In this document: in pieces, positions 61,159 through 63,223 of the stretch
Layout: every line of letters begins with the position of its first letter
Numbering within the stretch: the first letter of the stretch is position 1
Source: an uncultured Saprospiraceae bacterium
GTDB lineage: Bacteria > Bacteroidota > Bacteroidia > Chitinophagales > Saprospiraceae
Length of the DNA stretch: 64,000 nucleotides
NCBI GenBank assembly: GCA_964550795.1
Contig: CAZKBH010000020.1
Location: 8,111-72,110 of the forward strand
Direction: 5' to 3'
Program-made: the position numbers and the translations under genes
The notes under the pieces: generated by a model
The model's database searches: none
What the model was told of the DNA's origin: nothing
Seen by the model: the letters and a program-made list of their open reading frames with translations, nothing else

Positions 61159-61330
61159 GCAATATGTAAAATAATAGCGTAATCCCATATTTAACATACC
61201 GGGTTAGAAAAATCAAAAACTTATCAATATTTTTGCTAATTATTTGTAGTCCAGGCCTGGACAATGAATAGAAAAACGTACTCAATTTTTCATCTCTAAA
61301 TCATTTTTATTATGAAACAATCCTTTCAAA

Positions 61331-63223
61331 ATGTGGCACGATGGTTGTCACACACACACACACACACACACACACACACACACACTTGCAATAGGCATGT
61401 TGCTCTTTTTGCAATGTTTGGTGGGGAATGCCCAAGATCCGGGCAATTTTCAAATTTTGCCTCCAACTTATGACCCCGCTACAGGCATTACACGTTGTAC
61501 CATCAATTGGATCAATGTGACACCGCTGAACGTTCGTGGGCTATTCGTAGAGGCAAACCTTAACGGAAGCCAAGTTTGCCTTAACAATTCGACGGCAATA
61601 GTACCGACAGTCATCCACCCTGGCTTCAATGTCAACCCTTACAATAGGCAGATTGGTAACAACCAATTAACCATCTCAAGGGGCGGCCTCGCTAGCTCAC
61701 CGCCCTTTTCTTTGCCAATCCCAAAGCCCTACGCTGCTCCACCAAATACATCTTTTTTAGTCCTAAATTTCAGAGCGTTACCATCTTCAGTTTGCACCTT
61801 AAGCATATCTGGATGGGTTAGATTTGAAACGGGTCCTATTGTGCACTTTCAGGCCCAATCCCACATATTGACGCTTTCCTCAGGTGCATTAATTGCTGGA
61901 GACTTAGTGAAACCGGAAGGTTTGGGTTGCGACCTCGGTGCCGGAATTGGCCAAGGTTTATTGATACCCGGTGTAACTGTTACAAAAGTGGCTACGGTTA
62001 CACCGGGAGTATGTTTCCCAGGAGTAGCCAGTGAAAGCGAGTTGTTTCAAGGTCAGTACCAGTTTTTGAATAATCCTCGTTATGAGACCTACACCATCAC
62101 ACCCAGCAAAATATCTACAGATGTGTGCTGTGGTGTAACTTCGAATGACTTAGACTGGGCAATTGACAACATTTTTAACTCTCCACTGCCTCTCGGTAGA
62201 GCTATCGCTGCAGATATAAATGGCAGCAACTCCTTTACGTCTTATGACATCGTTATTATGCGTAGATGTGTGCTTGGGCTACCAGTTGGGCCTGAATATT
62301 TAGCCCCGGACTGGAAACCCTGGCGTTTTGTGCCATGGGACGGGCTAGCTAATCCTTGGCCTGGTTACGACCCACTAGACCCGGCAACACAGCCGCATGG
62401 AAATTACGAAAGCACTATCACTGCTACTGCTCCTTTTAGTGTAGCAGCGTTTTGGGGCGTAAAGCGGGGCGATATTGATGGAGACTGTCAAGACTGCGGG
62501 CCGTTTTTTGGGCCAGGTGAGGGTGAGGAACGTACAATCCCTTTAACGCAAAAGGTGTTTATTACAGACATAAACCTAGTCGAGGGTCAGGAAGCATATA
62601 TCCCTGTCCGCGCTAGTGAACTAAACCATGTCCGGCATTTTGGCATTGAATTGTTGTTTGACCCTAAGCAAATTGAAGTGCTTTCCGTTGAAAATGGAAA
62701 TCTTGAAGAAGAATTTGTTTACTACGATTTTACAACGGATCAACATGGCACGTCAGTTCGTTTTTCTTGGTTGACTTTAGAGCCAGAAGGTGTTGATTTG
62801 TCTGAAAACGAGGTGCTTTATTATGTGAAAATTCGAGCTAAGAAGGATATTATATCTCTTAAAGAGACTTTTTGGCAAAATCTTGACCATACCTCAAACT
62901 GGCTGTATGCGGATGGAAGAGATGAGAAGATGATCTTTAAAGCCGGGATATTGACTTCAAACTCGATCTCTTTTTCGGCAACCTTAGTAGGAGGCAACCC
63001 GGTTGGGACTTCACCAAGTGTAGATATTACACTACCATCGCCTGCTATAGTAGTTATTAAGCTGATAGATGGGAAAGGTCAAGCGATCAAGAGCGTAAGT
63101 CAATACCTTCCGGAGGGTCTTAGCAGTGTGCCAATCATTGATTTTCCAACTTCCTCCGGTGTTTACACGCTAAGCATCCAATCTTCTTATGGAATAAGAA
63201 CAATGCGGCTCGTGAAAATCTGA
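61331..63223 (+). CDS. Secreted protein with dockerin-like Ca-binding repeat, cohesin-like module and T9SS C-terminal sorting domain
   Basis: 'LAIGMLLFLQCLVGNAQ' signal; 'AADINGSNSFTSYDIVIMRRCVLG' and 'GDIDGD' (dockerin-like); 'LVEGQEAYIPVRASELNHVRHFGIELLFDPKQIEVLSVENG' (cohesin-like); C-terminal 'GVYTLSIQSSYGIRTMRLVKI'. The start codon is uncertain because of the CA tract. Confidence 0.6.
   Translation: MWHDGCHTHTHTHTHTHTLAIGMLLFLQCLVGNAQDPGNFQILPPTYDPATGITRCTINWINVTPLNVRGLFVEANLNGSQVCLNNSTAIVPTVIHPGFNVNPYNRQIGNNQLTISRGGLASSPPFSLPIPKPYAAPPNTSFLVLNFRALPSSVCTLSISGWVRFETGPIVHFQAQSHILTLSSGALIAGDLVKPEGLGCDLGAGIGQGLLIPGVTVTKVATVTPGVCFPGVASESELFQGQYQFLNNPRYETYTITPSKISTDVCCGVTSNDLDWAIDNIFNSPLPLGRAIAADINGSNSFTSYDIVIMRRCVLGLPVGPEYLAPDWKPWRFVPWDGLANPWPGYDPLDPATQPHGNYESTITATAPFSVAAFWGVKRGDIDGDCQDCGPFFGPGEGEERTIPLTQKVFITDINLVEGQEAYIPVRASELNHVRHFGIELLFDPKQIEVLSVENGNLEEEFVYYDFTTDQHGTSVRFSWLTLEPEGVDLSENEVLYYVKIRAKKDIISLKETFWQNLDHTSNWLYADGRDEKMIFKAGILTSNSISFSATLVGGNPVGTSPSVDITLPSPAIVVIKLIDGKGQAIKSVSQYLPEGLSSVPIIDFPTSSGVYTLSIQSSYGIRTMRLVKI
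61349..61385 (+). repeat. (CA)18 dinucleotide microsatellite inside the 5' end of the CDS
   Basis: 37 nt of uninterrupted CA repeats are translated as (HT)6 in the current frame. Confidence 0.98.

Follow-up and report, generated by a model that had tools for sequence, protein, structure and literature searches.

A conserved, length-polymorphic CA tract in the signal-peptide coding region of a predicted surface protein gene of uncultured Saprospiraceae as a candidate slippage switch

A stretch of 64,000 nucleotides (nt) from an uncultured Saprospiraceae bacterium (assembly GCA_964550795.1, contig CAZKBH010000020.1, positions 8,111 to 72,110 of the forward strand; hereafter referred to as the window) carries a perfect CA repeat in the 5' end of a gene for a predicted surface protein. 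We consider it probable that this tract is a hypermutable slippage switch in the signal-peptide coding region of a cohesin/dockerin-like surface protein predicted to be secreted by the type IX secretion system (T9SS). The observations behind this proposal are the tract itself and the arithmetic of its reading frames, its conservation in related loci, its variation in length by whole units where sequences are otherwise near-identical, and the finding of all three phases in nature. An earlier note on this DNA had read the tract as a phase-variation switch; the last three of these observations support that reading, but the switch is not a simple ON/OFF one in the window, where ATG codons lie in all frames. 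The locus belongs to a known kind, the simple-sequence-repeat loci with translational phase variation such as oipA and licA, found here in an unusual setting. Two features take it beyond the textbook case: a start codon in each of the three frames and, beside the tract, an element whose conservation does not depend on the frame. The features of the 5' end of the gene are the following:

61312-61314, forward strand: ATG1, with A at position -3; opens MKQSFQNVARWLS(HT)n; out of phase at the current tract length (open reading frame, ORF, 61312-61473)
61327-61348, forward strand: 22-nt element CAAAATGTGGCACGATGGTTGT, abutting the tract and conserved at the DNA level
61331-61333, forward strand: ATG2, with A at -3; currently in phase; opens the ORF of 630 amino acids (aa), MWHDGC(HT)6LAIG...
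61331-63223, forward strand: main ORF in the present phase, 630 aa, MWHDGC(HT)6LAIGMLLFLQCLVGNAQ...
61341-61343, forward strand: ATG3, with A at -3; third frame, MVV(TH)n; phased by loss of one or gain of two CA units
61349-61385, forward strand: perfect dinucleotide tract (CA)18C, 37 nt, the proposed slippage site; encodes alternating His/Thr and is stop-free in every frame
61385-61435, forward strand: signal peptide, hydrophobic core with predicted cleavage region (LAIGMLLFLQCLVGNAQ), including ATG4 at 61397-61399

Tandem Repeats Finder (TRF) returned the tract as a period-2 array of 18.5 copies with 100% matches and the consensus CA, and this was the sole period-2 array in the 64-kb window. 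Matches to a 12-nt CA pattern were likewise confined to the tract, against an expectation of 0.00 (none of 100 dinucleotide-preserving shuffles contained a match). Within 61300-61480, the local sequence reads ...ATTATGAAACAATCCTTTCAAAATGTGGCACGATGGTTGT(CA)18CTTGCAATAGGCATGTTGCTC.... The perfect 37-nt tract described in the earlier note was borne out by these searches, and the ORF list agreed with its account of ATG 61331 as the in-frame start of MWHDGC(HT)6LAIG... and of ATG 61312 as an out-of-phase start whose frame ends at TGA 61471-61473. Both of the upstream ATGs named there lie in the frames given, but the third ATG, at 61341, had been overlooked. Since ATG1, ATG2 and ATG3 occupy all three frames, exactly one of them is in phase at any tract length in the window. 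Accordingly, when tracts of (CA)12 to (CA)24 were simulated, the in-phase start cycled through ATG2, ATG1 and ATG3, and the product was always of full length with one of three N-termini; as had been predicted, the gain of one CA unit or the loss of two joined ATG 61312 to the main ORF. As in licA-type loci, the ATGs at 61312, 61331 and 61341 lie in different frames and each has an open path into the tract. Across Bacteroidota, additional AUGs are depleted in the vicinity of start codons (PMC6847099), which makes three AUGs within 32 nt unusual.

For the comparison across the gene family, 41 related loci (L001 to L041) were taken from genome, metagenome and sequencing-run assemblies of JGI, ENA, NCBI and Logan. 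The homologue search gave nine full-length relatives of 37-73% identity, and in several homologue N-termini HTHT stands directly ahead of the hydrophobic core. Wherever a locus extends to the 5' end (L012 and L017 do not), a CA tract was found at the same position, L008 being the sole exception. The tract lengths in the family were 12, 13, 14, 15, 17, 18, 19, 20, 21, 22, 24, 29 and 37 nt, the window having the longest. The tract-bearing orthologues show 29-73% protein identity, and the metagenome-assembled genomes (MAGs) from which they come are labelled as Saprospiraceae, Chitinophagales or Haliscomenobacteraceae. In the 267,757 nt of the window and the 41 loci together, all 39 dinucleotide tracts of at least five units were this tract, and no other gene there had one. 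A neutral perfect microsatellite would not survive the roughly 50% nucleotide divergence of the gene, and the comparison of sequences thus indicates that the tract itself is under selection across the family. The locus lacking the tract, L008, is 33% identical and carries TATATATA at the tract position. In this copy (~2940-3010), the most divergent relative with a 5' end, we observed (TA)4 where the other loci have (CA)n, together with a canonical-looking TGGCACGATTTCTGCT and a TGA directly before the ATGATGATG start; because of this TGA, the L008 copy can start only downstream.

The three-frame arrangement of the window is shared by L015/L016, L011/L022 and L019, whereas the remaining lineages have starts in one or two frames. 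The equivalent of ATG2 is the called start in the orthologues P0006 and L015, and that of ATG3 is the in-phase start in L003, L016 and L019 (P0003, P0013).

The comparison of tract lengths between strains had been set beforehand as a test of the proposal, and it gave whole-unit differences on 95-100% identical flanks, which favours a slippage switch. Such differences (13/15, 13/17, 14/22 and 18/20 nt) were seen in four lineages with near-identical flanks, three of them with flanks that do not differ at all. Loci L001 and L003, which are 99.7% identical over 5.1 kb, have tracts of 13 and 15 nt. One identical 609-aa protein with identical 100-nt flanks was found at ten places, on contigs from eight samples, two of which carry the gene twice; the tract was 13 nt long in three of these places and 15 nt in seven. 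Tracts of 13 and 17 nt occur in L015 and L016 (99.0% identical), of 13 and 19 nt in L011 and L022 (95-97% identity), and of 18 and 20 nt in L023 and L041, whose flanks are identical. In L021 the tract has 14 nt, compared to 22 nt in L037-L040 from four sequencing runs, the flanks of which differ by two substitutions in the ~65 nt upstream of the tract and are otherwise identical. All tract differences on near-identical backgrounds were multiples of 2 nt. Within protein clusters at 90% identity, the mature parts were the same or nearly so, with N-termini reading MKRSFQNVARWLSHTHT..., MVEPHTHT... or a downstream Met call. As judged from these alignments, this is the pattern expected of slippage far faster than point substitution.

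Two observations on gene bodies stand beside this comparison. Three metagenome contigs (L015 ~1560, L016 ~3766 and L017 ~560) share a mid-gene deletion of ~89 codons with a change of frame, so that the gene of this lineage is probably a pseudogene with a tract that is still polymorphic (13 versus 17 nt). In the MAG ACE_BAC3 (L011; 3229-3237), about 1.5 kb of the gene body is deleted.

The phase of the tract was counted over about 20 independent sequences. The first ATG is in phase in L001, L005, L007, L010, L013, L018, L021 and L023, an ATG of the second or third frame is in phase in the window, L003, L011, L015, L016, L019 and L022, and no upstream ATG is in phase in L006, L009, L014, L025 and L026, as well as in L037-L040 and L041. 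Among the lineages with starts in a single frame, ~7 sequences are in phase and ~7 are out. This is unlike an ordinary gene, for which every sequence should be in phase; near-random phasing is compatible both with a switch that is frequently OFF in nature and with an untranslated tract.

The proposed mechanism is as follows. Slipped-strand mispairing at replication would add or remove CA units of 2 nt, and each slip would change which upstream start is phased with the ORF, single-unit gains cycling through three states. In the state phased to ATG 61312, the protein would have a canonical signal peptide with Lys and Arg in its n-region; in the current state, phased to ATG 61331, it would begin with MWHDGC(HT)n, and in that phased to ATG 61341 with MVV(TH)n. 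These states would differ in the signal-peptide n-region and probably also in the efficiency of initiation, resulting in a heritable and reversible change in the amount exported to the surface. In orthologues with starts in one frame only, the same tract would give plain ON/OFF switching. We further infer a high and reversible switching rate within clones, an effect on expression or export and an adaptive value as bet-hedging, for example against phages or grazers that recognise the protein. Deep-branching orthologues read the motif W-H-x-x-C-(HT)n from their first ATG, and since the window in its present phase reads this family-wide motif from ATG2, its allele may be an expressing one. The present state of the window, with ATG 61331 in phase, may thus represent the ON state rather than a crippled one. 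The frame of W-H-x-x-C was in phase in 8 of 15 cases against one third expected, which is suggestive but not significant, and we did not rely on it.

Several points weigh against a slippage switch. In the window, slippage may change little, as ATGs lie in all three frames. The phase is near random, with ~8 of 20 sequences in phase with ATG1, as it would also be if the tract were untranslated. Nor does this model account for the strong conservation of the 22-nt element at the DNA level. In the lineage of the window itself, two contigs were available (the second being ENA ERZ27262927), both with 37 nt and identical over 5.67 kb, and the exact 630-aa protein of the window was found on these two contigs only, with identical tracts. 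A cluster look-up gave the sequence as absent from the collection, which disagrees with this, and the first homologue search listed no self hit. All compared sequences are metagenome assemblies and not read-level data, which counts against the proposal with regard to heterogeneity within one population or clone. Finally, many family representatives are called from a Met within the hydrophobic core, and L008 can start only there; a downstream start is at least viable in some relatives.

The element beside the tract deserves a separate account. It is 82-100% identical in 11 orthologous loci and 64% identical in a twelfth (L009), while the mature coding sequences of these loci are 49-70% identical to the window, nine of them 49-54%. 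Its position is occupied in L005, L007, L009-L011, L013-L016, L019, L022, L023 and L025. Read from the first ATG, the element gives NVARWLS in the window, L001, L015, L011, L019 and L022, W-H-x-x-C in L005, L008, L009, L010, L013, L023 and L025, and CGTVVV in L007. Because the frame of the first ATG through the element differs by lineage, one protein frame cannot explain the conservation. It may stem from a triple-coding constraint, as the element supplies both ATG2 and ATG3, from a binding site, or from a motif W-H-x-x-C-(HT)n of the ancestral n-region. We also considered a local RNA hairpin (UGUGGCA-N7-UGUCACA, 7 bp) and rejected it: with -7 to -8 kcal/mol and z ~-1 it was no better than shuffles, its arms are invariant without any covariation seen, and it is missing from the L001 and L006 clades.

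In two paralogous loci, the 5' part of the gene may have been exchanged. The proteins of L013 and L014 are 40% identical, and their 5' cassettes of promoter, leader and signal peptide (L013 1-258, L014 2805-3064) are 98% identical and one CA unit apart, with tracts of 19 nt, in phase, and 21 nt, out of phase. The gene bodies are located as follows:

L013, 162-2054, and L014, 2986-4908: bodies of the two paralogous genes

Members of the family thus seem to have passed the 5' cassette to one another by recombination or gene conversion. The gene with a CHU_C domain after the L013 gene is 96% identical to the one before the L014 gene, and the two genes are therefore probably in tandem in one genome. 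Elsewhere, on contigs of a related Saprospiraceae MAG, a module of gene plus CHU_C gene is present as two tandem copies, which are 99.86% identical and spaced 5.4 kb apart (L003/L004 on JBILHS010000003.1, L030/L031 and L032/L033); this could be a real duplication or the unrolling of strain variants by the assembly. Several copies with their own tracts and a common 5' cassette correspond to the layout of classical phase-variable surface-protein families.

Based on the element and the shared cassette, it is conceivable, though in our view rather unlikely, that the 22-nt element and the tract together form a maintained three-phase cassette, in which each slip picks one of three N-termini of the signal peptide, giving graded or different export rather than turning the gene off, and which, with promoter and leader, is exchanged or homogenised among divergent paralogues; alternatively, the element could be a cis-site for a factor acting on slippage or expression. 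If either were true, the locus would contain a family-wide, ancient module for programmed hypermutation in free-living freshwater Bacteroidota.

A different explanation is that translation starts from ATG 61397, so that the tract and the upstream ATGs belong to a 5' leader or a short upstream ORF; tract length would then have no bearing on the reading frame and would drift neutrally, or at most tune the leader. We regard this as improbable. The near-random phase relative to ATG1 across natural sequences would be expected from it, a downstream Met is often called as start (P0005, P0007, P0009, P0011, P0016 and many representatives), and L008, without a CA tract, has its TGA just before the MMM start. 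In the segment of three to seven codons between tract and ATG4, however, the main frame encodes AIG, AIV, ALVLV, FVFVLFV, AIILFC, TIALVLF, HKFVIV or FKSLI, that is, always hydrophobic residues or Lys followed by hydrophobic ones. In each of the 17 loci, and despite differing DNA and length, only the main frame makes the segment hydrophobic, with a Kyte-Doolittle mean over these loci of +2.85 compared to -0.83 and -0.85 in the other frames. By its composition, the segment is the beginning of the signal-peptide core, and its hydropathy argues for main-frame translation beyond the tract. If ATG4 were the start, the presequence would be only 10-15 residues long and would have no n-region. The base at -3 is A for ATG1, ATG2 and ATG3 and G for ATG4, and A at -3 promotes initiation in Flavobacterium johnsoniae (PMC6847099). 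ATG1 followed by Lys or Asn is kept in all lineages, with a conserved promoter box upstream, and orthologues that have diverged to 29-73% identity would not have retained a perfect microsatellite had it been neutral. Initiation at ATG 61397, which had been named beforehand as a finding that would refute the switch, is therefore disfavoured by the hydropathy in all 17 loci and the short presequence.

The phase also affects how the gene is annotated. Called gene lengths range from 602 to 662 aa family-wide, with up to four N-termini (609, 621, 630 and 632 aa) in a single 90%-identity cluster; as the called length depends on phase, the signal peptide is routinely mis-annotated or truncated. Most representatives at 28-40% identity (P0020-P0061) are annotated from a mid-core Met without an n-region, whereas more distant relatives have normal MK... 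signal peptides. The mid-core annotations are probably a systematic mis-calling of out-of-phase alleles.

Independently of phase, the tract could act as an unstructured CA-rich translational enhancer or ribosome landing zone, or as a His/Thr spacer, with the three-frame ATGs buffering slippage and the length being noise, which we judge to be quite improbable as a sole explanation. In E. coli, CA repeats downstream of the start are quoted as having a stimulating effect on translation (Martin-Farmer and Janssen 1999, as cited in PMC3879156), and a CA multimer near a start codon is indeed present at the locus. In addition, Bacteroidota initiate without Shine-Dalgarno guidance and rely on unstructured start regions (PMC6847099), CA repeats give stop-free His/Thr in every frame, and the clade of the window has an ATG in phase at every length. 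Most lineages, however, have starts in one frame, and about half of their sequences are out of phase (L006, L009, L014, L025, L026, L037-L040, L041), which would be costly if expression were always needed. Buffering cannot account for the tract in the ancestral design with a single start frame, and an enhancer would not require a perfect, uninterrupted repeat. By analogy, an enhancer activity of the E. coli type could also be an additional function of a tract that switches.

It is very unlikely that the element TGGCAC-N5-TTGT and the tract constitute a DNA-level site, be it a sigma-54-type promoter firing into the tract, an operator or a Z-DNA-forming (CA/TG)n, with the length of the tract modulating transcription instead of translation. 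The 22-nt element is conserved independently of the reading frame, TGGCACG-N4-TTGT resembles the sigma-54 -24/-12 consensus, with CTGC at -12 in L008, and an imperfect inverted repeat TGTGGCA-N7-TGTCACA is present. Against this, the defining GC at -12 is GT in all lineages but one, and the element is missing in three subclades that keep the tract (L001/L003, L006/L018/L026 and L021); the main-frame coding signal right after the tract, moreover, needs translation through it. As a promoter candidate (TGGCAC-N5-TTGC), the site was rejected, its -12 position reading GT (TGGCACGATGGTTGT) with the GC missing, and matches to the sigma-54 pattern with one mismatch were not above chance in the window (5 found, 5.9 expected).

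An artefact of sequencing or assembly, be it in the tract as such or in its length, is hardly credible: dinucleotide repeats are prone to polymerase stutter and all compared sequences come from metagenome assemblies, but the second contig has the same 37-nt tract, the tract recurs in loci from assemblies of JGI, ENA, NCBI and Logan, and with 12-37 nt the tracts fit within a sequencing read and within the k=141 contig k-mer.

We return to the slippage switch with the product on which it would act. The main ORF is predicted to encode a secreted surface protein, probably surface-attached and cohesin/dockerin-like. It begins with a beta-sandwich and ends in the sorting domain; between them lie a middle part that was modelled poorly and shows dockerin-like Ca-loop motifs, and then the cohesin-like module. 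The following features lie in the second half of the gene and behind it:

62555-62989, forward strand: cohesin-like beta-sandwich module (~aa 409-553), from Foldseek
62996-63217, forward strand: T9SS type A C-terminal sorting domain (aa 556-629), TIGR04183 (NCBIfam), below cut-off
63242-63273, forward strand: terminator-like hairpin of 13 pairs followed by a T-rich tail, 3' of the stop codon

The AlphaFold model was built from a ten-sequence alignment and had a mean predicted local distance difference test (pLDDT) score of 58. It was confident only at residues 35-182 and 409-630, with residues 183-406 below 50, and the interpretation was therefore limited to the cohesin-like and terminal domains. 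The hydrophobic core, the NAQ sequence and a modelled helix at residues 16-33 point to an N-terminal Sec signal peptide, presumably cleaved after NAQ. With Foldseek, the cohesin-like module matched the cohesin 2w1n (E 1.8e-7) as well as 4dh2, 2xdh and 5g5d, the latter with target-normalised template modelling (TM) scores of ~0.57-0.60. A Pfam search of the protein of the window gave no match; in one family member Pfam Cohesin matched (0.0011), and the same member had a weak Dockerin match. TIGR04183 scored 19.2 bits on the protein of the window, compared to the curated cut-off of 23, and matched all ten family proteins of alignment A1 at E<=0.01 (best 1.1e-6). The description as a T9SS surface protein consequently holds at the level of the family, but the protein of the window taken alone stays under the cut-off.

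The gene lies directly after rpsK-rpsD-rpoA-rplQ, rplQ ending at 61093. The next ORF begins near 63304, and its counterpart in orthologous loci encodes a protein of >1000 aa with a CHU_C domain; in one relative (L021), a PorP/SprF gene is located upstream of the family gene. Taken together, the predicted signal peptide, the sorting domain, the modelled cohesin-like module and the CHU_C and PorP/SprF neighbours are consistent with the surface exposure expected of the product of a contingency locus.

Upstream of ATG1, two further features were recognised:

61228-61235, forward strand: match TATTTTTG to the -7 promoter box TAnnTTTG, ~76 nt upstream of ATG1
61249-61262, forward strand: perfect palindrome GTCCAGGCCTGGAC, just 3' of the -7 box and near the predicted mRNA 5' end

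TAnnTTTG is what we take to be the -7 promoter consensus of Bacteroidota. In alignment A2 of 17 orthologous leaders, the TA and TTT positions are invariant and the G nearly so, and the box is a candidate promoter of the gene. With this conserved box upstream of it, ATG1 is expected to be part of the mRNA. All 17 leaders of A2 have an ATG(A/G/C) start 27-43 nt before the tract, with the codon after this conserved first ATG encoding Lys, Asn, Arg or Thr; in one lineage outside A2 the start is GTG. At the place of GTCCAGGCCTGGAC, the orthologues have a GC-rich palindrome with a GGGCCC core. Most orthologues, but not the window, also show a CACCCTCC motif, similar to the 3' tail of 16S rRNA, ~35 nt before the first ATG; the palindrome and this motif were seen in A2 at columns ~81-96 and 110-120. 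With regard to structure, RNAalifold gave no consensus pairs on the 17 leaders, the folding of a 201-nt leader (z -0.74) showed no notable structure, and an Rfam search of 61050-61550 at E<=10 returned only noise with nothing near a gathering score. A scan of 61000-61600 for E. coli-type sigma-70 promoters and terminators, which does not cover Bacteroidota promoters, gave nothing useful on the forward strand; it was the alignment that brought out the -7 box.

The window contains other repeats. In the spacers of the ribosomal-protein cluster, TRF found a 9-nt unit (AATGTGGTC) in tandem arrays, behind each of which the reverse complement (GACCACATT) forms an array in turn, and the spacer between rpoA and rplQ has arrays of the heptamer AATGATG and its complement ATTCATC. 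Together, these 9-nt and heptamer arrays lie at 46999-47192, 49042-49086, 50185-50340, 57758-57893, 58313-58452 and 60205-60387, and as inverted tandem arrays they are predicted to form hairpins. A second repeat-rich 5' region is found at 38782-38849, where a (CCAATCC)n array gives way to a C8 homopolymer; the latter stops 4 nt short of ATG 38853, which belongs to a 458-aa ORF.

Among known systems, the closest to the locus described here is oipA of H. pylori. In this species, oipA (hopH), sabA and hopZ carry CT repeats in the signal-peptide region, slipped-strand mispairing sets their On/Off status, and natural isolates show many repeat numbers and both states (PMC10564699). The gene of the window shares with oipA a dinucleotide repeat in the signal-peptide coding region of a surface protein, but the repeat is CA and not CT, the host is a free-living freshwater Bacteroidota and not a host-restricted pathogen, and export is predicted to proceed via the T9SS. 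In addition, the tract is kept down to 29% identity, far beyond one species, the clade of the window has ATGs in three frames, and the system is known here from sequence comparison, not from experiment. In H. influenzae licA (lic1), the number of 5'-CAAT-3' repeats phases different initiation codons, which cover two of the three frames (PMC2212159). The repeat lies just downstream of alternative ATGs there as it does here, but one phase of licA is OFF, whereas the clade of the window has an ATG in every frame, and licA has a tetranucleotide unit and encodes a cytoplasmic choline kinase instead of a secreted protein. The opa genes of Neisseria carry CTCTT pentamers in the leader-peptide coding region of paralogous surface adhesins, the copies of which switch independently. 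The likeness lies in the position of the repeat in the signal-peptide region and, here, in paralogous or tandem modules with their own tracts (L013/L014, L003/L004); opa differs in its pentameric unit, in a repeat that codes for part of the hydrophobic core and in belonging to a pathogen. The invertible promoters and site-specific invertases of Bacteroides belong to the same phylum and also give stochastic surface variation, but their mechanism is recombinational, whereas repeat slippage is proposed here. CA-repeat or ACA enhancers of E. coli and Salmonella consist of a CA multimer close to or downstream of the start codon (PMC3879156); they are short engineered or natural motifs that act on the rate of initiation and, in contrast to the tract, are not reported to be length-polymorphic or to shift the frame.

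A phase-variation review of 2025 mentions Bacteroides only in connection with invertase systems (PMC11868660). Our literature searches brought up no switch of the repeat type for T9SS cargo or environmental Bacteroidota, an absence that is not proof. A lesson of practical use concerns annotation, as gene callers give one and the same gene many lengths depending on phase and thereby mis-annotate its signal peptide. To our knowledge, work on phase variation driven by repeats has dealt almost exclusively with host-adapted pathogens, and the described systems of Bacteroidota use DNA inversion. The locus reported here lies in uncultured freshwater bacteria of the Saprospiraceae type, is conserved family-wide and is already polymorphic in public lake metagenomes. 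It opens the question of whether free-living environmental bacteria use contingency loci against phages, grazers and changing conditions of attachment.

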